Notes: a model not told the origin generated them from the sequence alone. A DNA stretch of 62,266 nt from an uncultured bacterium (GCA_963784355.1 CAWAQU010000008.1:1-62266), one strand, 5' to 3'; counted from the stretch's first letter, positions 1-60,873 are shown. Translations and numbers: made by a program.

Positions 1-2128
1 ATCAGTTGTATATCGACCAAAATCATAACAATCAACAAGACGGAGATGAAAGCAATGGTAGAAGAGATCAAACTATAATCACTACAGGAGTCTATGTCTT
101 TAAAGATGCAGTTACTGGGAATATTCTGGGTAATGTAAGCTCACAAACAGATTATACAGACCCAGCTACACTCATATTCAAAAGACTTCCTAATAAAGAT
201 TACAAAGTTGAATTTACCCAAGTGCAGTCTCCTTATCCACCACTATCCGGTAGCGAGCTTACTAAACAATTCACAGTTGATAACATCACTAAAAACTTTA
301 GTCTTACTTACGGCTTTATCCCAACAAACAATAGTAGCATAAGTGGAAAAGTATATTTAAACAGAGGCAGCACTGATTATGAAGCAAATGGTTTAGATAA
401 TAATCCGGCAACTGTTTTTGATAATGAACAGCTATATAGTGGAAAAATTATTCAGCTGTATATGCATAATATACTTATTGCTACCCAAAATACTAATCAA
501 AACGGTGAGTACAACTTCCCAGGCCTTGCTGAAGGATATTACAGAGTACAAGTTGCTGACGTGGCGCCAAGTGGCACAACTTGTTTAATGTGCATTGCTG
601 AAGGGACATATGTATACCAAGACACCAACACTACTCAAGACTTTACTTATGACTACAATGCAGTCTTTACTATAGGAGCCTTTCATGACACAATTGCCAA
701 TGGTATCTGGGATGAGTCTGAATTAGCAACTGAAAAAGGTGGCCCAATAAGATTTACCCTGACTTATACAGGTGATCCTTTAACTACAGCTGATAACTCT
801 GTAGTAGCTACAAACGTTGGCCCAAATCCATGTTGCAGTAGAACCGGAATTGGAAATTTGATGCCGGGAAATTACTCAGTTAGTATTAACAATATTCCAT
901 CCGGAATTACCTTAGGCGGCGGTTTATCTAACCCTGATCCTATAGGTATTTTGGCTAGTGAAAATTTAGCAAAGAACTATCCATTTAGTCCTTTCACTAA
1001 CAATATTATTAAGGGTAAAGTATTTATCAACCAACGCGACGAGCAAGGTGAGAATGAATATAATACTGGGGAAACGGTACTTGCAGGTACGGTAGTTTCT
1101 GTGGTAGGGCCTCTTGGTACCTACACAGCTACAGCAAACTCAAGCGGAGACTACGAAATTACAGGACTGCCAACTGGTAATTACAAATTGCATAAGTTTA
1201 GTGATGGCGAGGGGGAGAGTAATCCTATTCCTAACGCTATTATACCAATTCAGTACGCTTCCGGTGTAGTTGATCAGTGTTTAACTACAATTAAATGTAA
1301 GAAAATACTTAGTGAAAAGTGGGTATGGGGTACAACTATGATTGGAGGTGTAGACTACAGCGATGCTGATATAGTTAAAGCTGGTGTCAATATAGATAAT
1401 AGTACAGTTATCACAAATAATCTGATTTATGTGTATACTAATAAATTAAAGGGGCAGTGTATTGATGATAAAAAATGGTGACGGACAGCTTAGTACTTAT
1501 CCCAACAACCCAGCTGATGGGCCGGTAGCTGGTTGTAACTTTGAAGTTAAGAAACAAAATGGTGAAGTAGTTTACAGTACTATTGGTAACTTTGATACAG
1601 GCCCATATTTAGAACCTGGTACTTACATAATTAAAAAGCTCAACAACTTAACCGGCAAACTAAACACAAATACAACTAAAAGTAGGTCTGGAGAAAGAGA
1701 AGATCCAACCACTGTCAACTTAGGTTCAGTTAGTGAGGTAACTCTAACTATCACAAATACAAGTATATATCAAAAATCAACAATCAACTTCTTCCAGTTT
1801 ACTCCGGTACTCACTTCCAACTCTTCCATAACAGGAAAAGTATTTAGGGATAAGGAAAATAATGGTAGTTTTGATATTTGTAGGACTTGATGAGGATATA
1901 TATACTTTAGAAGATAACGATGAGCCAATAGGTGGTGTACAAGTTAATCTATCCGGTACAGGGCCTAATGGTATTACAATAAATAGACAAGCAAGTACAG
2001 CAGTTGATGGTAAGTTCCAGTTTACTGATTTACCTCAAGGCACCTATACTGTTACTGCTACTGGGTTGCAGGTGGAGATTGGGAATAATAGTAGTGGAGA
2101 TGGAAGTGGTAGCGTAGAAACTCCTTAG
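1..2128 (+). CDS. Large surface protein with SdrD B-like/CnaB (prealbumin-fold) repeats; 5'-partial, split by two +1 frameshifts (~1470, ~1878)
   Basis: ORFs 6..1481, 1462..1890 and 1862..2128 share recurring motifs (ISGKVY/F, DxNxNG, GEYxFxGLxxGxY). Removing one A from the A6 run at 1470-1475 gives DDKNGDGQL. Removing one T near 1878 gives FDIVGLDED. Confidence 0.7.
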
Positions 2129-2238
2129 TAAACTTAGTAGGAAGTATTTGTGGGTTTGCAAGAGGAAGTAACAGCAATAAAATAGCCCCCTGGTTGGGGG
2201 GGGTTGGGGGTTGCAACAACTAATTATAATAGTGACAT

Positions 2239-2654
2239 TTAACCATTAATATCCACATTTATTTTTCTGTGGCTGCTCATTCTAAGTATAGGAATTTGAA
2301 TCACAAGAATACCTTGATTGATTGCGGCTTTGATTTTATCTATGTCCAGATTTTCATTTATTGTCAGCTCACGATAAATTCTCCCCAAAAACACTCTTCA
2401 AGTAATAAAGTAACACTAGCATCAGAATAAGGTTTTTTTCTTATACCTTTAATTGATAAAGTATTATTTTCAACTGAAATGTCAAGGTCCTTAGGATTTC
2501 CCCCGGCAACTGTGGACACAACATAAATACTTTCTTCATCTCTGTATACATCAACAGTTAATTGAGGTACTTCTTCAGGCTTCCAAGCAGCATTTGCACC
2601 TGTAGCTGATGAGGCATCTAAGGCTTGCTGGGTAGTTACATTAATTTGTGACAT
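2239..2654 (-). CDS. Hsp20/alpha-crystallin small heat-shock protein (one frameshift near 2377)
   Basis: VDVYRDEESIYVVSTVAG...LSIKGIR...ECFWGEF. Adding one T continues YRELTINENLDIDKIKAAINQGILVIQIP to TAA at 2239. Confidence 0.85.
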
Positions 2655-2657
2655 ATA

Positions 2658-3133
2658 TTATATTTCATGGTTTTTTAACATATTAATAATTTGCTGATTG
2701 TCTTATTGCTCCCAAATCGTATAAGCTATATTACCGTTCGGATTTATTAAAAATACCCCTCTTTTTTGTAGTATATGAAGCAAAAAACTTTTTAGGGGCC
2801 CCGTAAGCATCTCTAATTTGTTTTCCTTCATCCACTAGAATATCAAATTGGTAATTCTGTTTCTATAAATTTTTGATGGGATTTTTCATCAGCATGATTC
2901 ACACCATAAACTTCAACACCTAAATCTTTATACTCTTTATAAATATCTCTGATTCCGCATAGTTGCGAAGTACATCCGGGTGTATCATCCCCAGGGTAAA
3001 ATACTAGTAACACCTTTTTACCTTCTTTAAGCAATTTACTTAAACTAATCTCAATACCAGCTTGGTTTTTTGCTGTAAAATCAGGGGCTTTATCACCTAC
3101 TTTTAGTACTTTGGCTTCTGTTTCTTTACTCAT
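2658..3133 (-). CDS. bcp: Peroxiredoxin, BCP/PrxQ family (multiple frameshifts in the 3' half)
   Basis: GDKAPDF...FYPGDDTPGCTSQLC motif. Shifted frames continue YQFDILVDEGKQIRDAYG and RGVFLINPNGNIAY. Confidence 0.8.
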
Positions 3134-3175
3134 AGAATTATTCCAAATCTGTCTGAGTTGAAAATTATTGTCAAG

Positions 3176-3517
3176 CTAATACCCGACAAGTACTTTTTGT
3201 GTAGTTACTGTAGTTGTATTTGACTCTTTTGTTTTATCCTCTTTTATAATTGCATCATTTATTCTACCCAATTCGCTAGATTTAACAATTTCCAATTTTT
3301 TTGATTCTGCATCCACCTTAAGTTCATCATCAATTTTTCTTTCAATCTCACTTCTGTAACTAACCCTTTGAACTTGTTGTTTGTAGATGTTATTTTTCAA
3401 ATCATTTTTATATTTATTTAAACTAGACATATTGTTAACTACCAAAATTATGGAAAAAAAGGTAATTACAAATACCACAAGCAAAAAACTAAATCTCAAA
3501 ATTTGATTAATTTGCAT
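3176..3517 (-). CDS. Hypothetical single-pass membrane protein with coiled-coil region
   Basis: N-terminal hydrophobic helix then a charged helical stretch; TTGACA 35 bp upstream of ATG. Confidence 0.6.
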   Translation of the reverse strand: MQINQILRFSFLLVVFVITFFSIILVVNNMSSLNKYKNDLKNNIYKQQVQRVSYRSEIERKIDDELKVDAESKKLEIVKSSELGRINDAIIKEDKTKESNTTTVTTQKVLVGY

Positions 3518-3560
3518 AATTGTTTTAAGGTTAAGATATTATTGTTTGTCAATTATATTT

Positions 3561-4292
3561 ATGCGTTTAAATCAATTTTTAGCCCAAAATTTGGGTATCT
3601 CCAGGAGAGCAGGAGATAAGTACATTACTCAAGGTCTAGTTGAAGTCAACGGTGAAATAGGTCAGCTTTTTGATCAAATTAGCCAAAGTGATTCGGTCAG
3701 ATACTATAATAATCGTGAGTGGGTTGATATCAATAGTAATGGCGAAGATAGAACTATATTGTTTTACAAGCCAATATTTAGTTTAGTTTCAAAAAAGCCG
3801 GAGTTTGGCAAAAAGACTGTTTATGATCTACTACCAAAAGCTTACCAAAATTTAAAGTATGCAGGGAGGCTAGACTATATGAGCGAGGGGCTACTTGTCC
3901 TCACAACCAGTGGCGAATTAATCCAAACCCTGACTCACCCAAGCAATGAATCAGACAAAGAGTATCTTGTGGGATTGAAATACGCTTTGAAAAAAGAAGA
4001 GGTGGGTGAAATGAAAAGTGGTATGACGCTTGAAGGCGTAAAGTTAAACCCTGTAATGGTAAATCTGTACAAAGCTGCCGATGTAGAATCTAGGCACGAT
4101 GAGTACAATTTTTTGAGCTTGCAGAGGAATTTTTGGTGGTATAAATTTACTTTATCAGAAGGAAAGAATAACCAAATCCGCAATATGTGTGAGGCTTTTG
4201 GGCAAAAAGTACTACGACTAATTAGGGTAAAGCAAGGTGAGTATTACTTAGATTCAAAACTTTATAAACAAAAAATTATTGAGGTAAGATAA
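3561..4292 (+). CDS. rRNA pseudouridine synthase, RsuA/RluB family
   Basis: S4 domain MRLNQFLA...SRR, catalytic GRLD, EGKNNQIR and LRLIRV motifs. ATG at 3561 preferred to the TTG at 3546. Confidence 0.92.
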   Translation: MRLNQFLAQNLGISRRAGDKYITQGLVEVNGEIGQLFDQISQSDSVRYYNNREWVDINSNGEDRTILFYKPIFSLVSKKPEFGKKTVYDLLPKAYQNLKYAGRLDYMSEGLLVLTTSGELIQTLTHPSNESDKEYLVGLKYALKKEEVGEMKSGMTLEGVKLNPVMVNLYKAADVESRHDEYNFLSLQRNFWWYKFTLSEGKNNQIRNMCEAFGQKVLRLIRVKQGEYYLDSKLYKQKIIEVR

Positions 4293-4357
4293 AGTAAGCC
4301 ATAATCAATGCAAATAGTTGATAAAATAAGCCACCAAAGTGAGCTGGATATTACGAT

Positions 4358-4386
4358 TTTACAAAAAGAAATATATTCGATATACT
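4358..4386 (+). promoter_or_regulatory. Sigma70-type promoter of the surface-protein operon
   Basis: TTTACA(4358)-17 bp-TATACT(4381). Confidence 0.55.
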
Positions 4387-4480
4387 TACATAAATAAGTA
4401 GTGAAACCTTGTATTCAGTGTATTTAGTATTTACACTTATTGAGGTAAATTAATAAAAATAAAAATAAAAAACATATATT

Positions 4481-5932
4481 ATGGTAGATTTTCGGAAGAT
4501 TCAATTCCGTTTAAATTATAGTAAAAAAAGCTGGTATATAATTGCTTCTGCTTCTTTTGCTATTTGTATTTTTGCATTAGGCATTCTTAGTGTAAATAGT
4601 AATCTGTTTTCAAAACAACCACGGGTAGCATTAGCTAATCTTGATTGTAGTTTAAATAATGTAGCTACAATAACTTATGATGGGGCAGTTGATACTATTT
4701 ATTCTAATGAATTAGCTTATCCGATGGAGTGTGTAGTAACTAATAGTACTTCAACTTCTGGAACAGGTAGTAGTAGTAGTAGTAGTACGAGTACTTCAAC
4801 TTCAGGTACTAATACTTCAACAACTAGTAATACAAGTAACACCACTGATACAACAAATACTGCAACTAATACAAGTACTTCAACCTCAGGTACTAATACA
4901 GCAACAAACACTTCTAACACAAGCAATACTGCAACTAATACAGGTTCTAACACGAGTAATACAGCTACAAGTACAAGTGGAACTGCTACTTCAACCTCAG
5001 GTACTAATACTTCAGGCACGGCTGGTACTACTAATACGACCAGTAATACGACTGATACAGCTACAAGTACAAGTGGAACAGGTACTAACACTACGAGCAC
5101 TGCTACTTCAACCTCAGGTACTAACACAAGTAATACTACAAACACTTCTAACACAAGCAATACTGCAACTAATACAGGTTCTAACACGAGTAATACAGCT
5201 ACAAGTACAAGTGGAACTGCTACTTCAACCTCAGGTACGACTTCAGGAACAACATCTACAAGTACAAGTGGAACAGGTACTAATACTACGAGCACTGCTA
5301 CTTCAACCTCAGGTACTAATACAGGTTCTAACACGAGTAATACAGCTACAAGTACAAGTGGAACAAGCACAAATACAGGTTCTAATACTACGAGCACTGC
5401 TACTTCAACCTCAGGTACTAATACTTCAGGTACAAATACAGCAACTAACACTTCTAATACAAGTAATACTGCAACTAATACAGGTTCTAACACGAGTAAT
5501 ACAGCTACAAGTACAAGTGGAACTGCTACTTCAACCTCAGGTACTAATACTTCTAATACGAGTAATACAAGTAACAACACAAGTAACACAACTAATACAG
5601 GTTCTAATACAGGTACTACTTCTAATACAGCAACGAACACTTCTAATACAAGCAATACTGCAACTAACACAGGTACTAACACGAGTAATACCTCTAACAC
5701 GACCAATACGGCTACAAATACAAGCAATACTGCAACTAACACAGCCACTAACACAACTAATACAAGCAAAAATACTAACACCTCAAACTCATCCAACACA
5801 ACCATGGATCCAATTAGTAATGTAATTAGAACTGGAGGAGAGTCTATAGTAAAAATTGTATCTCTAGTAGGACTAATATCAGTCTTTGTACTTTATCGTA
5901 AAAAACATAAGCAAAAAGTAGATTTAAAGTAG
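4481..5932 (+). CDS. Anchored Thr/Ser/Asn-rich stalk protein with a short Cys-bracketed N-terminal hairpin and a C-terminal IRTG + TM + basic tail
   Basis: Signal peptide ending VALA, 34-aa unique segment, ~355 aa low-complexity T/S/N/G, then VIRTGG-hydrophobic helix-RKKHKQK. Confidence 0.8.
   Translation: MVDFRKIQFRLNYSKKSWYIIASASFAICIFALGILSVNSNLFSKQPRVALANLDCSLNNVATITYDGAVDTIYSNELAYPMECVVTNSTSTSGTGSSSSSSTSTSTSGTNTSTTSNTSNTTDTTNTATNTSTSTSGTNTATNTSNTSNTATNTGSNTSNTATSTSGTATSTSGTNTSGTAGTTNTTSNTTDTATSTSGTGTNTTSTATSTSGTNTSNTTNTSNTSNTATNTGSNTSNTATSTSGTATSTSGTTSGTTSTSTSGTGTNTTSTATSTSGTNTGSNTSNTATSTSGTSTNTGSNTTSTATSTSGTNTSGTNTATNTSNTSNTATNTGSNTSNTATSTSGTATSTSGTNTSNTSNTSNNTSNTTNTGSNTGTTSNTATNTSNTSNTATNTGTNTSNTSNTTNTATNTSNTATNTATNTTNTSKNTNTSNSSNTTMDPISNVIRTGGESIVKIVSLVGLISVFVLYRKKHKQKVDLK
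4739..5800 (+). repeat. Intragenic degenerate tandem repeats, including a ~98-bp unit in three copies (4907, 5141, 5447)
   Basis: aacacttctaa(c/t)acaag(c/t)aatactgcaactaatacaggttctaacacgagtaatacagctacaagtacaagtggaactgctacttcaacctcaggtac recurs nearly identically. Confidence 0.9.
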
Positions 5933-8900
5933 GAAAAGTAAAAAATTAAATAAAATACAAGCCCAGCTTAAATAAAAATAAAAATACATACAAAAACAAA
6001 CACAAAAACAAATAACGCATATGAAGAAAACAAATCCTTTTTTTAAAGTTTCAAAACTAATAGTTAAAATAAAAAGTAGACTAGAAGGTAAATTAAAATT
6101 AAAAAGTAAGTTTGAAGATAAGTTTACTGGAAAGTATAAATGGTTAGTAAAGAGACCTGCAGTTTTTACTCTAATTACTACTTTACTTTTTTCTTTAGTA
6201 CTTGGAGCTGGATTGTTTGTGTTAAATGATAAGTTGCAAGTAAGAAAGGATGCAAGGGCTAGTTATAATGTGCCGGCGGTGGATAAGGAGTGTGCGTTTA
6301 GATTGGATATTATTGAATTTAGTAACGGACAAGTAATGCAGAATTTAGGAGGGTGTATACTGATTTTAGAACAAACGGAGCATCAGCAATAGGTTCACAA
6401 TCATATTATAACAACGACCCATTAAACGCTACTTCTTTTAACAAAAATTTAGCAGCTCGGTACAAAGTGTTTCAGTATAATAGTATTGAAATCACTAACC
6501 GTGACGAAGATAATAAAAAAGTTACCGTTAAAATTAACGCCTCACTAAGCAGGGATGTGGATACTAATTACACAATGTATAGAATCTATTCACTCGGAAT
6601 CGCTGAAGATGTTTCTACTTTTAACGGAAATGTTGTTACTGAAGGTTACGTCTGTGCCCCAGAACAAGTAAATGGTGTAAGCACTACTACTAATTCTGAC
6701 GGAAGTATTACGGTTAATTGGAGCAATCCGGGAAATAATAATATTGGGGGGGTCCTGTCATTTGCCCTACAATGCTCTCCAGATCAGCAAAGTTGGTTTG
6801 GATGCGGCTACACAACTGTTAATGATATTTTATCTTTAAAAATAAGTAATGGGTTAAAGTCTGGAACCAATTATTTTAGAGTATTCGCAGATAATACCAT
6901 TGGTTTGAGCAAACCTTCTAACATTGCTTCAGCCACTTTTAAAAGTAGGCCTAATAAAGTAACTAATTTGGCAGCTAGTTGGGATGGTACTAAAATTAAT
7001 CTTACTTGGAGTGCTCCTGCTGACAATTCATCACCTATTACTGGGTATGAAGTTAAATACACAACTGATGGAACTATTTGGAGTACTCATTCTACAGTCA
7101 ACACTACAAATCTAACTATAGACGATTCCACTAATTTTCCAGTAGGTAATTATGCGTTTAAAGTTATCGTATCTAACTCTATTGGCAAGACTGGCGATTC
7201 GAATTTTGCAAATCTGAAAGATCCTAATAACCCTGATAGCTTTAATCTTAATTTGAAGTATGAAGACGGTGCGGTATTTGGCTGGGGCGCTAACTCAGAC
7301 AGTTCGCTAACTGCTCAACAATTATGCATGGGAGGCGTGGGTCTTGAACCAAATGTATTCCAGCCCACTCAAGTCACTTCACTCAGTGAAAGCAATAGCG
7401 ATCTTAACGGAAATAATATTAAAAAAATAGTTGGAAACAGTCGTTTTGGAAGTCGTTCATTAATACTAACCAAAAATGGAAAAGTATACGGCTGCGGGGA
7501 TAACCGAGCAGGAATATTAGGAAGAGGAGTTCTTTATAGTAGTTTTAACTCTAACGGTGCAACAGCACCAGATCACACCCTTTCACCAGGCCAATATTTA
7601 TCATATTCCGGAGTGCCCGAAGAAATTTCTAAAGTCAACTTTTTAGATGGGGAATCTATTACCGACATTGAGCTTGAAGAGACGATAGCCCTGGCTTCAA
7701 CTAATTTTGGCAGAGTTTTGTATTGGGGACAAGGTGGATTTTGTGCTATGGGTGTAGGCCAAAAAAATAGCGGTGGTCAATGCGATGGTGTTAATAGCAG
7801 CGTGCCAAGAGAGCTTTTAGTTAAATCCGGCGGCATAAGTATGGCTGGAACGGTAGTTAAGGTTAGTAGAAACTATAGCAATGAATTGATGCTAAACGAT
7901 AAAGGAGAAGTCTGGACAACATGTTATTGGTGCGTTGCAAACGGCCAAATTAACCTCAGCAGCACTGACTATGGGGGATCAAGCGGTAATACCCAAGCTC
8001 CACCTATAATTAAAATTGAGAACGTCAATAACATGACCGAAATCGCAGGGGTGGGGTTCAACGGCATTGTAGCTTTAAAATCTGACGGAACGCTTTGGAC
8101 TTTAGCCGGACACGATTCCAGTAGCTATTCTGCAGGTGCATACCTTGGTACTGGTGCTAGTACTGTCACCTCTCCTGTTCAAATTAATTTTGGTGGGGAA
8201 AAAATACAAGAATTCAAATGCAAGGGTACTAGCTGTGTAGCTCTTGACGAAGTTGGTAAGGTTTGGATGTGGGGAGTAGATATCGTTGTTCCGACCACAC
8301 AAACTCTTTCTAACTACAAATCAAAGGTTAATACTCCTATAAGTATCCCTACTTCATATTTTGGAGGTAAAAAAATTAAAAGTATTGCCAATGGAAGCAG
8401 TAACTATACAGTACTCGATGAAGATGGGGAAGTTTGGGCTTGGGGTGAAGATAACGTAGGTCAAATTGGACAAGGTCAAGAAGCCTGGAATAACACAAAA
8501 ATGTACTCAGCTCCAATCAAAGTAAAATCTCCTCAGAGCATAAACGATAATTTAGAAAATATAAGTAGTGTCTACTCTAATGGCTACAATGCTTCCACCT
8601 TCGCAACAACCTCCACAACCCCCTCCCGCATCCTAGACTGCAGGTTACCTTCAAACCCACTTGACCCAGCTTCTACTCCTAAACCAGTAGCTCCAATCAT
8701 TGTTCCTGAGTATGCTAAAGTAAATCATGATATTTTTGGTCTTACTCTAGATAAAGATTCTAACTTGTATGTACTTAAAGCACCTCGCGACTCTTCTTCA
8801 ACAGGTAGATCTATTTACTACCCTGATGCTGATTCCCGGTCTAACCCAGCTCTTTATTCTTCTGATCTTTCTATTACTAAACTTGCTCCTTCTGTAACTG

Positions 8901-10129
8901 CTACCCCTAAGATTCCTTCTAGTATTACTCCTAACTGGAAAACTATTTCTAATTGGGGAAGACCAATGGATTTAGATACTCCTGGATTTAAGAGTCTTGT
9001 CTCTAACAATACTTTGTATACCTTTGGGTTAAGAGTAAAACCAGGTTCTGACTTAGAGTCTTCTCTTACTGTTTCCTTAGCTGACTCTGATCCTAATAAT
9101 GATGCTATTCCCCACGACGCAGATATTACAGGTCAAGTAGAAGGCTTTGTTACTAAAATTGATATTGCCACTGGTAATGTGATAGGTACTCAAGGAGGAT
9201 TTAAAGCAGCAGGGTTTGCTAAAGACTTTGGTGATATTTCAGTAAATCAAAATGGTGAAGTATTCATTGACGATACAAGACATCAAGCCGGAGGACAGGT
9301 GCAAGATAGTACCAGTGGCTCCTCTGCCTTTACTCCTAATACTTACAAGTATATTCAAAAGGGAGCTAGTAGCGCCCCCACTCCAGCTTCTGCTCTTACT
9401 CCTAATCCTAGTTTTTCTACCTTACCTGAGAATACCTTTTTAGATATCGCTTCAAGAGATGATGGAAAGAGTCTTTCCTTTGTAGGGCCAAATAGTATTC
9501 AAAACTATGGAACAGATATCTATTCTATTGATGGAAGTGGTAGCGCTCAGTTCATGAACTTGTCTTTAATGCATCCTTATGATGGAGGAGACCTGGAAGT
9601 AGCTAAAGCTGATACTACGTATGAAGGAGGACAGAACGGGACTGGTGGAACTGGAAATGGACTAGACTTACAAGGTAATAACTTTGCTTACTATACTATT
9701 GGATATGGAAGTCAGATAAGACCAAGTCTTGGAAGAGTAAACAAAGATAATACCATTACTTATTCTAACAACCACCCAGTAGATAAAGATTTTATCTCTT
9801 CTAATACAGGATATATGGATAAAGTAGTCTTTGATCTAGAGAATCAAGTTATCTACTACAAGAATGGAAGTAGAACAGAAAACAATTTAGACCAGACTAT
9901 TGGAAAAATATATTGTCCTAAGACTCAGGCTGAGGCTGATACTCCTGATCCTAACCCTAATTGCACAACAACAGGTACTTGTCCTAAGCCTCCTAGTTGT
10001 ACAACAGGTACTTGTACTGATGATGGTACTACTACTTGACCCGCATCTGCTAAACTAGACATAAGTTTCTGAACTATTCAGAAATGATTTAAAACAGTTA
10101 CATTTTAAAACAGTTACATAATTTATGTT

Positions 10130-10408
10130 ATGAAAGGCAGGCGTTTCCCTCAAGAACTCAAAGATCAAATCCTTGAGCAAATTAAAACATCAGGTAAAAG
10201 TATTGTAGAAATATGTCGTGAGAACGGATTAAACGAAAAAACAGTATATGGTTGGACTAAAAACAAGATGCTAGAATCAGGTCATCAACAAAACTTAACT
10301 CTAGAAGTAGCAAGACTGAAAAGAGAAAAACAACAATTAATTGATTTAATAGGTAGACTTACAATTGATGTTGATAAGCTGAATAAAAAAAAAGATAAAC
10401 TGTTTTGA
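10130..10408 (+). CDS. IS3 transposase OrfA (HTH + leucine zipper)
   Basis: RRFPQELKDQIL...SIVEICRENGLNEKTVYGW...EVARLKREKQQL. Confidence 0.9.
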   Translation: MKGRRFPQELKDQILEQIKTSGKSIVEICRENGLNEKTVYGWTKNKMLESGHQQNLTLEVARLKREKQQLIDLIGRLTIDVDKLNKKKDKLF

Positions 10409-11339
10409 AATCAACAAACTGCCTAAATCTGAAAGGTTAAAACTGGCTAGAGTCTGCTTAATTGAGTATCCAAGTACAAACAAATCGCTACTGGCTAATA
10501 TTCTTAAGCTCAATAGAACATCACTTTATCTGACTTCTAAACGAAATCTGTCAGATAATCATCATAAACAAGAAATATTATCGTTACTTGAGGACAATCC
10601 TTGTTATGGCTACCGTAGGGTAGCTATTTACTTTAAGTGGAGTAATAATAGGGCAAGACGGATTATGAGGAAATTTAGTATCTATCCACATTACAGGAAG
10701 CCAAAATATTTAGTTAAAAAGTGTGATTTAGGTAGGGTTGAATTAGAAATACCAAATCTGCTTAAACCAATTATTACAGAAAAACAGTTAACAAAACCTA
10801 ATCAAGCATGGTCAGCTGATTTTACATATCTTAGCTACAACAACTCATTTCTTTACTTAGCTACAGTTATTGATACTTTTTCTAAAGAAGTTGTAGGGTT
10901 TGAAATTAGTAACAGGCATAATACTGCTTTAGTGACAAAAGCTTTGGGTATGGCGATTAAAAGATTTGGAGCACCTAGCATATTTCACTCTGATCAGGGT
11001 AGTGAATATACCTCGTATGATTATCAGGAATTGTTAAACGATCTAGGTATTGGTATTTCATTATCTAAAAAAGCCAGTCCTTGGGAAAACGGGTATCAGG
11101 AGAGTTTTTACGGTAAATTTAAATTTGAACTGGGTAGATTAAACAGATTCAAATCTGTGGAACTTGCAGGTGAAGCTATTTACAAGCAGATTTACTATTA
11201 CAACAATAAAAGGATTCATACTTCAATTAGAGAAATACCTGCTAATTTTAGGAGGAAATATGAGGAGCTAAGTCAAGTACAAAATCAGTTTAAAAAAGAT
11301 CAAGAAAATCAGTTTAAAAGTTTAGAATTAAGTGTCTAG
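10383..11339 (+). CDS. IS3 transposase OrfB (rve/DDE integrase core); frame open from 10383
   Basis: YGYRR upstream of the annotated ATG; WSADFTY, FHSDQGSEY, ENGYQESFYGKFK, YYNNKRIH. Confidence 0.92.
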   Translation: MKKKINCFEINKLPKSERLKLARVCLIEYPSTNKSLLANILKLNRTSLYLTSKRNLSDNHHKQEILSLLEDNPCYGYRRVAIYFKWSNNRARRIMRKFSIYPHYRKPKYLVKKCDLGRVELEIPNLLKPIITEKQLTKPNQAWSADFTYLSYNNSFLYLATVIDTFSKEVVGFEISNRHNTALVTKALGMAIKRFGAPSIFHSDQGSEYTSYDYQELLNDLGIGISLSKKASPWENGYQESFYGKFKFELGRLNRFKSVELAGEAIYKQIYYYNNKRIHTSIREIPANFRRKYEELSQVQNQFKKDQENQFKSLELSV

Positions 11340-12289
11340 TTTTTCGGGGGCTTGACAACTCCTCCTGGTGGAAAGCCTAGTGGTGATTGTGCTCAAATGG
11401 GTACTTGTACTGATGGTGGTACTCCAAACCCTAATCCAAATCCTGGTGGGAATCCTACTACCCCTCCTGGTGGTGGAACTAATCCTTGTGCTTTTGGTTG
11501 TCCTGGTGTAACTATTACTACTCCACCTGGAGGTGATCCGGGAACTGGAACTAATACTACTAGTTCTACTGCAGGTACAAGTACTGCTTCAAGTACAACT
11601 AATACAGCGAGTGGAACGACTACAACGAGTGGAACAGCTGGTTCTACTTCAGGTACATCTGGGACTTCAACAAGCACAACTACCGGAACTAATACAAATA
11701 CCTCTACTTCAACAAGTACAGCTACTTCAGGTACTACATCAACAAGCACGTCTGGAACTTCAACATCTAGCTCAACATCTGGAACCTCAAGCTCTTCAAC
11801 TGGTAGTACTACTGGTTCTTCTTCTACTTCAGGTTCTACCTCAGGTACAGGAGGAGGTAATGTTATACTTGTAAAATCAGCTACTAGAAATGGAGTTAGT
11901 TTAGCAAGTGGTAGTACTGTAGTGAAAGATGATATTATTACTTTTACTATTCAGTATACTAATACTACAACAAATAGTTTAAGTAATGTAGTGATTACAG
12001 ATATTGTTAATATTAATGCTGACTTTGTTTTAAATTCTTGTAGTGGAACTGGAGGTGTTAGCTGCGATACTACAGGTTATGGAAATGATAGGAGTGTTAA
12101 ATGGAATATACCTAGCCTTGCTGGAAGTGGAAGTAGTACTGGAGGTAGTGGAGGAGGAAGTGGAAATAGTGGAAGTGTTAGTTTTCAGGTTAGGGTTAGG
12201 TAGGGAAAAGTTTTATCTACTAGCCTTTGTACATTATACTACAAAATAGGTAAAATCAATCTAATAATAAAATTTGCACTTTTAAAGAT

Positions 12290-57615: not shown

Positions 57616-60600
57616 ATGGCAAATAGCAAAAACTATAAAATAAGTGCTTTAGCTCCTAAAAACAACGTATCTTTCAGGAAATCTCTAAAAAATAGGCGTA
57701 GGAAAAGCCTGGTATTTTCTGTAATTGCAGTGTATCTATTAATGGGTATAACTGTAGGCTCATTTTTATTTGGAGGTAAGTCCGGTCCGGCAAAAGCTAG
57801 CGAAGCTGCCCTGATTAGTGCATCTATAAAACTTGCTGAAGAGCGAGATTACAAATTGGGAGATTCTTTGAAGATAACCATGACACTACAAAATACTAGT
57901 ACTGTAGAGTCAATTAACGCTTTGGCTGTAGATCTTTATTCCACACAAAACAGCATCAAATGGGTAGATATAAAATCTGATAAGACAAATGAAAATTTGG
58001 AAATAAGTCCAACAGGATCTTTTAAATTACCTGTTTTGTCCTCCGGTGAACGGGCAGAATACAACATTCAAGGTAATATCCAAAGCAACAATTTAGACTA
58101 CTTGAATATACTAGGACGTATTAAATATTTAAACAAAATGGGTCCTCAGGATTTGGAAACCAATAGAATTTATACAAAGCTTACAAGCTCAGGAAATAAT
58201 ACTGGCCATTTAGTAAGTGTTGCAGGTAAAGAAAAGTTTAATCTGGGTGAGGCTCTTGTTTTCAATCTCGCTAAAGATAAAATAGAATCCACTAAGGGCA
58301 AATTTTATGTCTCAAATGCAGACACACAAGAAGTAGTTTTGAATAATGACTGTGATCTAACAACTTCAGAAACTTGTGAAATAAATATTAAATCCCTACC
58401 TGTCGGTAATTATAGTAGTTTATATATTGATGAAAATGAAAATTACTTCAGTAATATAAAATTGTTTAGTGTAAGTGGTAAAAAGAATGATTTTATCCCT
58501 AATGAACAGGCTAGTTTAGAATTTCCAATAGGTAATACAAGTATAAACGGAATTTTGCCGGTGATTGCTAAAAAGGTTTTATCTTTAAATCAGATTGTAT
58601 CTACTGAAAATATTTGTACTTTTGAAATATATTTAAATAAACAGTTGGTAAACACAGCAAAAGCGGCTGTTGATAGTGATAGAAGTTGCAGATTTACTTT
58701 TAACTCCGAGTATTTGAATCGCGGAAATAATACATATGTAATTAAACTTGCTAATACAAGCATTGAGAAAGATATTTTTTATACAAACAAACCAGATAAA
58801 TTATTTGCTCTGACAAACAAAACTGGAGCTTTAATTAAAGGTAAAAATGCAGACATAGAAGCTACCGGAATTACAGATCCAACGGGCAATATTGCAACTG
58901 ATAAAAAAGTTACTCTTGCTATTTTGCACCAACAAACTGGTGAATATACAGAAATCAATAATCTTAACGGTAACACATTAAAAGTAGTTGACGGAGTATT
59001 TAGTACAAGTATTAGTTCCAATTCTTTAAGTAAAGGTGGTACCTATATTGTTAATTTTAAAACAGAAGATGGTTTACAATCAGATTGGTTAACACTTAGC
59101 TTTGAGGATAAACAAGTTGGCTTTAGTAAAAGTGGTGTAATCACAGACACTAAAGGACTTAAGATTGGTCAAGATATAATTCTTACACTTGATAATTTAA
59201 TAGACAGAAGTGGAAATCAAATTTCAGAAGGCGAGTGTAGCGCAAACGTCTATAGTGCTCAAGCTGCAGCAACAATTACAGTTCCAGGACAAATCAAAAA
59301 AGGTGTTTGTAGTGCTACTTTAGCTGCAGGTAAAATCAAGCAATCAGGTCCAATTTTAGTAAGTTTTACCGGATCTGAAATTTCTAATAAAATCAATCAA
59401 AGCAAGCAACTTTATTTGGAAGCAGGAAAACCAGAAAAATATGGTAACATAAATTTGGAATTTGAGCCTGCAAAACAAGACTTTGCAAACACTGTAATCA
59501 TAGGCCCAATTACTGATAAATACGGAAACGCAGTAAACGCTTTTAACTATAAATTAAAATTGAGTAGTGAGGATGAAGAGGTCAAAGAATTTACAAACAT
59601 AGATGTGCAGTCAGGCTTTATTAAAATGGTATTGCCTTCTACATTTTTTGCCGGAGAAAAGCTTAATTTGGAATTTTTAGATGAAGCTGACAAGAAAATT
59701 ACTGACAGAACATTCGAAATTGATGCTACTAAAGGAAAACCAACTTTATCTGAGATCCCTAAAGAACTTAAAAATAATAAAAATTTACAATTTGAAATTT
59801 CAGGAATCAGCCTCACTAACCAAAGTCAATGTTTAGTTAAATTTATAAAGAGCAGTGATGAAGTATTGGAAAATAAATACGCTTACGATAATACAGAAGA
59901 TAAGTGTAAGATTGACTGGGATGTAAATTTATATAGAAATGCGGAAAAAGCTTTAGTGCATGTTGAAATCGGTGATAAAGCATTTAATCAGGTTGTGAGT
60001 ATAACAAGTGGTGAAGCTGTAAATCTATTTACTATTGCTCCACAAATTAGAATAAATAAACAAAATGAACTTGAGCTTAAATTACTCACCTCTCCAATTA
60101 CTGATAAATATGGTAAGGTAGTTGATAAGGCTCCTATCAAATGGCAATACAACGGCAAAATTGTACAGTCTACAGTTGACTCAGGCATTTCCCAACTTAG
60201 CTTGCCTGCCAGCAAATTGGAAACTAGAGATATTAAAGTAACAGATGCCAGTAAGTACTTAGATTTAGATCTGGATGTAAAAGCAGGGATTACTTCTATT
60301 AGTAAAACGAATAATCTACAAATTTACACCGGTAATTACGATATTAGTAACAAAGTTTCTAGCTTTGAAGTAGTTAGAGCCAGCTCCCAAATTTCTAATC
60401 AAAACAACACTATTTTTGCATTCAAAACAGATGCTTGCAGTGGAGAATTGATTACTACAAACTCTACACAGTTATTGAAAACTCATTTACAAGGTGGAAT
60501 ATGTTATGTGGAAGCTACCTCAGCAAGTCGAGATAACAAAATAGTATTCAAAAAAGACGGTTTCGATTTAGGTGAGTTTAATTATTCAACAATTACTGAT

Positions 60601-60873
60601 CCTCAAAATATTATATGGTGTACTTTGGAAAAGAAAAATTGTATGATTCAAGTCTTTACCCCGGTTAATAGTATAATTGATGTGAGAGTATTTGATGAAG
60701 ATAAAGAATATAAATTTAGCAGTAAGGATTTGGAAAATGTTGTAGTAATCAATCAAAACGGTTTAAACCCTTTGAAAAAGTACTCTGTAGAAATCAAATA
60801 CAAGGATCTTAACAATCAGGAAGTAACTCATACAAGAGAAATCACAGGTGAGAAATTGATTAGCAAGGAGTAG
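57616..60873 (+). CDS. Large secreted or membrane-anchored multi-Ig-like protein with N-terminal DUF11-like domain
   Basis: TM + PAKA; GDSLKITMTLQN...LSSGE; recurring (I/L)xD(K/R/P)xG(N/K) repeats. Confidence 0.65.
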   Translation: MANSKNYKISALAPKNNVSFRKSLKNRRRKSLVFSVIAVYLLMGITVGSFLFGGKSGPAKASEAALISASIKLAEERDYKLGDSLKITMTLQNTSTVESINALAVDLYSTQNSIKWVDIKSDKTNENLEISPTGSFKLPVLSSGERAEYNIQGNIQSNNLDYLNILGRIKYLNKMGPQDLETNRIYTKLTSSGNNTGHLVSVAGKEKFNLGEALVFNLAKDKIESTKGKFYVSNADTQEVVLNNDCDLTTSETCEINIKSLPVGNYSSLYIDENENYFSNIKLFSVSGKKNDFIPNEQASLEFPIGNTSINGILPVIAKKVLSLNQIVSTENICTFEIYLNKQLVNTAKAAVDSDRSCRFTFNSEYLNRGNNTYVIKLANTSIEKDIFYTNKPDKLFALTNKTGALIKGKNADIEATGITDPTGNIATDKKVTLAILHQQTGEYTEINNLNGNTLKVVDGVFSTSISSNSLSKGGTYIVNFKTEDGLQSDWLTLSFEDKQVGFSKSGVITDTKGLKIGQDIILTLDNLIDRSGNQISEGECSANVYSAQAAATITVPGQIKKGVCSATLAAGKIKQSGPILVSFTGSEISNKINQSKQLYLEAGKPEKYGNINLEFEPAKQDFANTVIIGPITDKYGNAVNAFNYKLKLSSEDEEVKEFTNIDVQSGFIKMVLPSTFFAGEKLNLEFLDEADKKITDRTFEIDATKGKPTLSEIPKELKNNKNLQFEISGISLTNQSQCLVKFIKSSDEVLENKYAYDNTEDKCKIDWDVNLYRNAEKALVHVEIGDKAFNQVVSITSGEAVNLFTIAPQIRINKQNELELKLLTSPITDKYGKVVDKAPIKWQYNGKIVQSTVDSGISQLSLPASKLETRDIKVTDASKYLDLDLDVKAGITSISKTNNLQIYTGNYDISNKVSSFEVVRASSQISNQNNTIFAFKTDACSGELITTNSTQLLKTHLQGGICYVEATSASRDNKIVFKKDGFDLGEFNYSTITDPQNIIWCTLEKKNCMIQVFTPVNSIIDVRVFDEDKEYKFSSKDLENVVVINQNGLNPLKKYSVEIKYKDLNNQEVTHTREITGEKLISKE

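Follow-up and report, generated by a model that had tools for sequence, protein, structure and literature searches.

Can one protein domain be divided between two genes, so that part of one gene product completes the fold of the other and holds it at the cell surface? The question is raised by two neighbouring genes, one for a stalk protein and one for an adhesin, in a stretch of 62,266 nucleotides from an uncultured bacterium (GCA_963784355.1 CAWAQU010000008.1:1-62266; hereafter the window). This contig, C8, belongs to a draft genome, G000, of 1.14 Mb in 13 contigs, with ~33% guanine plus cytosine and a marker completeness of 81%. The adhesin lacks a wall anchor and ends ...SVSFQVRVR-stop, inside a domain of the DUF11 family, which was renamed CLIPPER in a 2025 survey of intramolecular isopeptide bonds (Protein Sci 2025, PMC12617251). 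This C-terminal adhesin domain (11859-12200) is referred to as the catcher, and a hairpin near the N-terminus of the stalk protein (4637-4732) as the tag. The evidence below suggests that the products of the two genes probably work together to display the adhesin at the surface, through a CLIPPER domain that is naturally divided between them and in which the hairpin completes the catcher in trans.

Two probable parts of one CLIPPER domain in the adhesin and the stalk

Open reading frames (ORFs) were read under translation table 11. Full DUF11 repeats from G000 and its relatives (n = 18) were aligned as A2, to whose 176 columns all column numbers refer, and alignment A1 is A2 with the catcher as its first row; the Pfam profile PF01345 has 114 positions. 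The catcher, comprising the last 114 residues of the adhesin, matches PF01345 (DUF11) at 30.4 bits (cut-off 24.6) and TIGR01451 at 28.3 bits (cut-off 24), the former match covering profile positions 9-76 only. Profile alignment with hhalign places it on columns 38-117 (E 1.7e-15) and on no further columns. All 18 full repeats continue past column 117 into a loop, a phi-x-N-x-A-x-phi motif and a last strand. The only invariant columns among them are Y, D and the strand-8 Asn, and this Asn belongs to the part that the catcher is missing. A sequence-only reading of the window had described a giant adhesin ending in a DUF11 domain without its final hairpin; the truncated ending is borne out by both mappings, and the single reading frame is not, as the window copy is broken into three pieces by an IS3-family element and a frameshift. 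The gene at 57616-60873, which had been offered as a complete DUF11-like reference, did not serve as one, giving no Pfam DUF11 match at E<=1 and only E 2.5 with a DUF11 hidden Markov model (HMM) built here.

Structural comparison points to the same missing part. AlphaFold2 (AF2) models the catcher as seven strands, with a predicted local distance difference test score (pLDDT) of 90.5, and a full repeat of a relative as nine strands (pLDDT 88.4) with the invariant Asn on strand 8; the catcher does not contain a complete nine-strand CnaA-like sandwich in one chain. A Foldseek search with the full-repeat model returned 387 matches at E<=1e-3, including the CLIPPER structure 9IFR (E 1e-7, TMt 0.77) and isopeptide pilins, and with the catcher model none of 368 matches in the PDB reached E<=1e-3, all being generic sandwiches. 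A phmmer search of the PDB with the catcher sequence gave spurious G/S-loop matches only, 9IFR not among them, and the A1 profile matches 9ifr_A at E 2.6e-7.

In the survey's account, 9IFR has nine strands and a bond between Lys715 and Asn806, running from the first to the penultimate strand, with Asp748 nearby (PMC12617251). The catcher carries a candidate Lys (V-K-S, strand 1) at 11874-11876 and a candidate catalytic Asp (I-T-D, strand 3) at 12000-12002, and both residues are kept, as V-K-S/T and x-T/N-D, in 7/7 catchers from G000 and its relatives. The Asn of this triad is found only in the stalk hairpin, which contains L-N-N-V-A-T-I-T-Y-D-G and which a weak alignment sets on the invariant Asn column; the candidate reactive Asn is stalk residue 60 (codon 4658-4660). 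The earlier assignment of Lys and Asp to the adhesin and of Asn to the stalk agrees with the 9IFR triad. Completion of the catcher in cis by the adhesin's own mature N-terminus was considered and rejected, since the N-x-A motif is not there.

Translation confirms the layout previously given for the stalk gene at 4481-5932, namely an N-terminal part ending in ...VALA, a Cys-bracketed segment at 4637-4732, an S/T/N-rich stalk and a sortase-like tail. The relation of the Cys-bracketed hairpin to CLIPPER strands 8-9 was examined at several levels. When the whole genome was searched by hmmsearch with a profile of strands 8-9 (26 columns), the stalk was not reported, and the hairpin peptide alone scores 7.0 bits against that profile (i-E ~1.2 genome-wide). 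Used alone, the window hairpin is placed by hhalign on columns 125-136, where its Asn coincides with the invariant Asn column (P 0.058). An alignment of three hairpins (A4) was made from the window tag and the two tandem tags of G018, a closed 1.27-Mb genome of another genus; the hairpins are 24-31% identical and share the invariant residues C, N, A, G and C. As a profile, A4 falls on columns 124-144, which are both missing strands (P 0.0049), and a search of G000 and G018 with it at E<=10 gave five matches, all of them stalk N-termini. The two gene products thus map onto adjacent and complementary parts of the profile, the catcher on columns 38-117 and the hairpin on columns 124-144, as the sequence-only reading had anticipated, with the reservation that this holds for the three-hairpin profile and not for the single hairpin. 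Co-folding of the catcher (with A1) and the stalk peptide 4637-4756 gave scores of 0.03 and 0.20 against a mark of 0.32, with controls not folded, and counts neither for nor against the pairing.

The gene pair in G000 and its relatives

Three copies of the adhesin tail are present in G000 and end at the identical residue, ...SVSFQVRVR-stop, and the stalk gene is also present in three copies, identical over their first 100 residues. Homology between the paralogues and the window starts at 4354 (C6 copy) or 5953 (C5 copy) and ends 2 nucleotides (nt) past the adhesin stop, at 12205, in all three, beyond which the downstream flanks of the adhesin copies differ. Between copies, tag and catcher are 97-100% identical and the adhesin heads 77-80% (nt). 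A nearly identical adhesin copy at C7:2-2281 is free of the insertion sequence (IS) and reads without interruption, and the pair made up of the C6 stalk and the adhesin spanning the ends of C6 and C7 appears intact, the joining of these contigs being suggested by sequence continuity. The sharp edges at 4354 or 5953 and at 12205 look as if stalk and adhesin together, or the adhesin alone, move or recombine as a bounded cassette.

The neighbourhood of catcher-ended adhesins and hairpin-bearing stalk is repeated in G018. The conserved adhesin mid-domain occurs in 2/26 genomes of the family and in 2/401 sampled genomes of the phylum, the two being G000 and G018 in both cases. Locus L028 of G018 encodes three paralogous adhesins of 825, 851 and 803 amino acids (aa), followed directly by the stalk gene. 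These adhesins consist of an N-terminus with a transmembrane (TM) segment and an AxA motif, a variable head, TSP3 repeats, the mid-domain (47% identity), a T/G linker and a C-terminal DUF11 domain that is 30% identical to the window catcher. They end ...ISFAVVVN-stop at column 117/176 (E 8.8e-18), Pfam position 80/114. The giant G018 stalk is composed of full CLIPPER repeats, spans the start of the record and ends in LPRTGG, a TM segment and a basic tail. After its N-terminal TM segment and ...KIAKA, it carries two tandem Cys-bracketed hairpins, with I-V-N-Q-A-E-I and L-V-N-N-A-S-V. Gene order and stalk composition differ between the two genomes, with a stalk rich in S/T/N placed before the adhesin in G000 and a stalk of CLIPPER repeats placed after three adhesins in G018. 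The features that the split-domain model needs, an anchorless adhesin ending in a catcher and, beside it, a sortase-signal stalk tipped with a hairpin, are therefore shared, and those that differ are features it does not need.

When the G018 adhesin was used as the query of a protein search, four proteins were found, namely its own G018 entry, the multi-repeat P0008, P0152 and P0153 (proteins from the protein-database searches are numbered with P). P0152, encoded on another metagenome contig and 67% identical, also has the mid-domain and ends ...VSFSVVVN at Pfam position 84/114. The same truncation point is consequently found in seven genes from three organisms (three in G000, three in G018, and P0152), across catchers that are as little as 30% identical between G000 and G018, and the stop is accordingly taken to be neither a mutation nor an error. 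P0153 (43% identity over the mid-domain) combines the mid-domain, an S-rich stalk and ...AVRTGG with a TM segment and basic tail in one chain, and has no family match in Pfam, so no CLIPPER. This fused adhesin, stalk and anchor argues that the separate adhesin and stalk work as one unit, and the split CLIPPER of the two-protein form lies at the joint between the very parts that are fused in P0153. A shorter homologue of the G018 stalk, P0080, which came from the search of protein representatives with the catcher, has the same two hairpins and the LPRTGG end, its match to Gram_pos_anchor (17.7 bits) being below the cut-off of 20.

A search of protein representatives with the catcher gave 231 matches at E<=1e-3, and the best 150 of these 231 are all multi-repeat DUF11 proteins of <=44% identity. 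No relatives were found in genome contigs with stalk residues 1-100, in metagenome contigs with the catcher or with a further alignment (A3), or in homologous-protein searches with stalk residues 1-100 and with the adhesin tail of C7 ('longer' lengths). Among the best 150 of 231, seven proteins have their last domain at the C-terminus, and two of the seven, P0100 (1227 aa) and P0116 (425 aa), end at the catcher column; these were not counted as catcher-ended, because contig ends may account for their truncation. The last repeat of P0100 carries an insertion with N-x-A between strands 1 and 2, possibly a circular permutation in cis. The multi-repeat CLIPPER proteins P0065 and P0072, found only as DUF11 matches in the same search with the catcher, have an orphan hairpin resembling strands 8-9 (x-I-x-N-x-A-x-phi-x-Y-x-D-x-G-G) right after the signal peptide, preceding the first complete repeat; the last CLIPPER repeat of each is likewise complete, and they neither support nor contradict completion in trans.

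A proposed joint between adhesin and stalk

The following model is built on what was observed: the conserved anatomy of the two proteins, their complementary mapping, the position of their genes side by side and the homologue that unites adhesin and stalk in one chain. The adhesin would be exported by means of its N-terminal TM segment and AxA site, and the stalk would be exported, lose its N-terminal part by cleavage after ...VALA and be attached to the wall by sortase through its xRTGG motif. The free N-terminal tip of the stalk would be a beta-hairpin stapled by a disulfide between its two Cys and carrying the strand-8 phi-x-N-x-A-x-phi motif. This hairpin would dock into the catcher, inserting as strands 8-9 into the seven-strand sandwich of the adhesin (hairpin complementation) and setting its Asn beside the Lys and Asp. 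The complementary mapping and the fused-chain homologue suggest that these putatively reactive residues lie on two polypeptides derived from one domain. A Lys-Asn isopeptide bond formed in trans could then lock the adhesin on the stalk, as within ordinary CLIPPER domains; this covalent lock is the least certain step and is proposed tentatively. With similar reserve, three paralogous adhesins with divergent heads and near-identical catchers may be regarded as interchangeable secreted proteins that are irreversibly ligated to the stalk tag, as in a natural covalent Tag/Catcher system.

Several observations weigh against completion in trans. The match of the hairpin to CLIPPER is weak at both P values given above and has an hhalign probability of 7%, and neither Pfam nor NCBIfam gives any family for the hairpin peptide at E<=10. 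The hairpin regular expression and the A4 profile were built from sequences that they recover, so their recovery is partly circular. The catcher form is found in three organisms only, among the 401 phylum genomes, the genome and metagenome scans and the protein searches, so that the comparison draws on few organisms, which are also close in phylogeny. The high identity of tag and catcher between copies need not reflect selection, since recent duplication or gene conversion could produce it, and the third adhesin copy (C5:47486-52477 plus C7:1-3732; L038, L039) has no stalk gene directly upstream. Cleavage of the stalk is uncertain, because the putative signal-peptidase site lies unusually far (~14 residues) downstream of the hydrophobic segment. 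AF2 models the catcher alone with confidence, although this says little about its stability because the input alignment consists of full-length homologues. As for the bond, some CLIPPER domains do not form isopeptide bonds, according to the survey (PMC12617251).

A rival explanation is that the truncated CLIPPER is a self-sufficient variant, for example a cap or binding module, and that the hairpins are unrelated to it, the genes being neighbours as parts of a surface locus and the adhesin being held by its own TM segment. The weak hairpin match, the confident model of the lone catcher, the N-terminal TM segment of the adhesins and the adhesin copy without an adjoining stalk gene would all be accommodated by it. 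However, such a domain would not account for the same stop column in seven genes at 30% identity, for Lys and Asp being kept without an Asn in cis, for hairpins that bear exactly the invariant N-x-A of the missing strand, or for a fused homologue in which a continuous chain to stalk and anchor replaces catcher and tag; the N-termini of the adhesins, moreover, carry the AxA motif seen in the stalk, which suggests that they are cleaved. A self-sufficient catcher is accordingly considered rather unlikely. It is a rather improbable but related account, overlapping with the preferred one, that the hairpin does complete the catcher and that the joint is purely non-covalent, with Lys, Asp and Asn as structural leftovers. 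CLIPPER domains without isopeptide bonds (PMC12617251) and BsaA oligomers that are stable in sodium dodecyl sulfate (SDS) even without the bond (10.1101/2024.11.04.621531) lend this plausibility, against which stands the conservation of each of Lys, Asp and Asn over catchers that are 30% identical and hairpins that are 24-31% identical.

An artefact or decay, in which the stop after strand 7 results from an assembly error, a recent nonsense mutation or rearrangement, or a family of pseudogenes, is very improbable. The window copy does carry an IS and a frameshift, and the genome is a draft of 13 contigs with near-identical duplicated stretches, but the same end occurs at three loci with different downstream flanks, in the closed G018 genome of another genus and in the metagenome protein P0152. 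In run X1, which may come from the same sample, a Logan contig also spans 12181-12400 across the adhesin stop without differences. The shared truncation point, the G018 neighbourhood, the P value of the three-hairpin profile and the fused homologue together make chance or recent mutation an unlikely origin of the split domain.

The split-domain model resembles several known systems in part. In chaperone-usher and type V pili, donor-strand complementation allows the strand of a neighbouring subunit to complete an immunoglobulin (Ig)-like fold; in sortase-built Gram-positive pili, surface fibres are anchored by sortase; and cohesin-dockerin pairs on scaffoldins display interchangeable heads modularly on an anchored scaffold. 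The present pair differs from these pili in that neither a chaperone or usher nor a sortase motif specific to pilins was identified, and from cohesin-dockerin pairs in that the joint would be a split isopeptide domain. Engineered pairs such as SpyTag/SpyCatcher and DogTag/DogCatcher are likewise Ig-like isopeptide domains of adhesins or pilins split into a short tag and a catcher, whose reconstitution joins the triad; isopeptag/pilin-C and SnoopTag/SnoopCatcher are further engineered split pairs. The engineered pairs are man-made, mostly of CnaB type and have single-strand tags, whereas the window pair is natural, is a CnaA-like CLIPPER and has a disulfide-bracketed two-strand hairpin, its reactivity being only proposed.

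Ordinary CLIPPER domains, exemplified by 9IFR (PMC12617251), share with the window pair the family match, the Lys on strand 1, the Asp, a candidate for the penultimate-strand Asn, here on the stalk hairpin, and, in the full repeats of relatives, the nine-strand CnaA-like sandwich; they also serve the stalks of fibrillar adhesins with sorting signals. They differ in that strands 1-7 are here at the C-terminus of the adhesin and the proposed strands 8-9 at the N-terminus of the stalk, so that any bond would be intermolecular, the domain being divided between two gene products. The BsaA fibres of Clostridium perfringens are described as 'donor-strand exchange and lock' (bioRxiv 10.1101/2024.11.04.621531), where an N-terminal segment of an exported protein inserts as beta structure into the incomplete sheet of another and an Asn-Lys bond with an acidic catalyst follows. 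BsaA is a fibre-forming homopolymer of TasA-like or pilin-like subunits in that account, whereas the window pair would be a heterotypic 1:1 or 2:1 joint, with different adhesins on a sortase-anchored stalk. As a natural precedent for donor-strand insertion followed by an isopeptide lock, BsaA was counted in favour of the split-domain model. Archaeal threads are reportedly a further example of such homopolymeric fibres.

The literature searched, which did not extend to subscription journals or supplements, yielded no account of a CLIPPER or other isopeptide domain that is split in nature and mounts adhesins on an anchored stalk. Isopeptide domains have been split by engineers for tools of the SpyTag/SpyCatcher type, and the window pair is a candidate for a natural heterotypic split. 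If the model is true, it would show that cells with tiny genomes have a further, novel means of assembling modular surface fibres, in which several exchangeable heads could sit on a single stalk, and would amount to a plug-and-display surface architecture in uncultured bacteria with small genomes; the two tandem tags of each G018 stalk would allow two adhesins per stalk. It would also mean that 'donor-strand exchange and lock' operates in hetero-assemblies as well as in homopolymers, and would provide biotechnology with a source of new orthogonal CnaA-type ligation pairs, at least two of them divergent (30% identical). The model is testable with two small recombinant proteins.

Features of the stalk and adhesin genes

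The features of the locus are collected in Table 1.

Table 1. Coordinates of the stalk and adhesin genes and their parts, in window positions unless another record is named.
Feature	Position	Strand	Basis and remarks
Stalk protein gene, 483 aa	4481..5932	+	Export signal, hairpin tag, S/T/N-rich stalk, sortase-type sorting signal; translation
Promoter-like site TTTACA-17-TATACT	4358..4386	+	10/12 consensus matches; just inside the left cassette edge at 4354 (blastn)
N-terminal hydrophobic segment, spacer and ...PRVALA, presumed signal-peptidase site	4481..4636	+	Translation; cleavage presumed
Cys-bracketed 32-residue hairpin (tag), proposed CLIPPER strands 8-9	4637..4732	+	Profile alignment
S/T/N-rich low-complexity stalk, ~390 residues	4733..5821	+	Translation
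Sorting signal: VIRTGG, ~20 hydrophobic residues, RKKHKQK tail	5822..5932	+	Translation
Adhesin, first piece: TM anchor and ...KDARA site	6021..6392	+	Frame lost near 6345
Adhesin, main piece: two FN3 domains, RCC1-like propeller, conserved RILDCRLP...IGKIYCP mid-domain, Cys/Pro-rich linker	6353..10036 (ORF to 10039)	+	Pfam
IS3-family element, 1321 bp	10037..11357	+	orfA 10130-10408, HTH_Tnp_1; orfB 10665-11339, rve
Adhesin, continuation: Pro/Gly/Cys linker and S/T-rich spacer	11358..11858	+	Uninterrupted reading in the C7 copy
Catcher: CLIPPER/DUF11 strands 1-7, then stop	11859..12203	+	Pfam, alignment, AF2
N-termini with TM segment, spacer and AxA pattern	Window 4481-4636, 6021-6260; G018 locus L028 3405, 5983, 8689, 11250; P0152, P0153		

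The promoter-like site is weak evidence of a promoter, because four such sites were found against 8.3 expected in shuffled sequence. The C-terminus of the stalk has the motif, hydrophobic stretch and basic tail of an LPXTG-type sorting signal, and it aligns with the LPRTGG/PIRTGG ends of the relatives' DUF11 proteins and with the AVRTGG end of P0153 (E 3e-4). In G000 and G018 such signals occur on the stalks only and not on the catcher-ended adhesins. Two matches to sortase (PF04203) exceed the cut-off in G018, and G000 has one partial match at a contig end (23.9 bits, cut-off 26.6). A gene for an LCP (LytR-CpsA-Psr) glycopolymer transferase (12290-13855, minus strand; TIGR00350, 86 bits) is convergent to the end of the adhesin, which fits a Gram-positive-type wall with sortase substrates attached. 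Throughout the family, adhesins and stalks alike carry at the N-terminus a TM segment, a spacer of 6-14 residues and [KRQ]-x-A-[KRL]-A, with a Cys within a few residues after it; this pattern may be a signal-peptidase site, perhaps typical of the lineage and with an unusually long spacer.

The window adhesin is read in three ORFs (6021-6392, 6353-10039 and 11352-12203), and the IS3 insertion and a 1-nt frameshift indicate that this copy is disrupted or inactivated. A run of G near 6345 (~6340-6352) is one nt short relative to the C6 and C5 paralogues, which read through, and this deficit may be genuine, a slip that made the gene a pseudogene, or may be an error in sequencing the homopolymer. 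An alternative genetic code was rejected as the cause of the broken frame, the breaks being the IS and the 1-nt indel. The inserted element has the features of the IS3 family: a helix-turn-helix orfA (HTH_Tnp_1, 1.2e-10), a DDE orfB (rve, 3e-29), a sub-terminal inverted repeat (10052-10078 and 11316-11342), a 3-bp ACT target duplication as judged against the IS-free C7 copy, and multiple copies, the other two of the three in G000 lying at C7:6424-7744 and C9:131967-133288 with 99.9-100% identity. The IS-free junction is present at C7:1-2281 and also in a run X1 Logan contig that joins 10033 to 11358.

The third adhesin copy of G000 is flanked by an ORF with a UvrD-helicase N-terminal domain and by an ORF with UvrD_C and a PD-(D/E)XK nuclease domain, and this cassette apparently lies inside an AddA-like helicase-nuclease gene or separates its two halves, if the ends of C5 and C7 are contiguous. 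Upstream of the stalk gene, a comparison of window 1-5797 with C10:1-5232 places C10:1-3289 on window 2506-5797 with 99.5% identity. Three overlapping ORFs in the window (3-1478, 1450-1887 and 1832-2125) correspond there to one ORF of 521 aa on C10, which suggests further frameshifts in the window, or duplicates that arise from strains or from the assembly.

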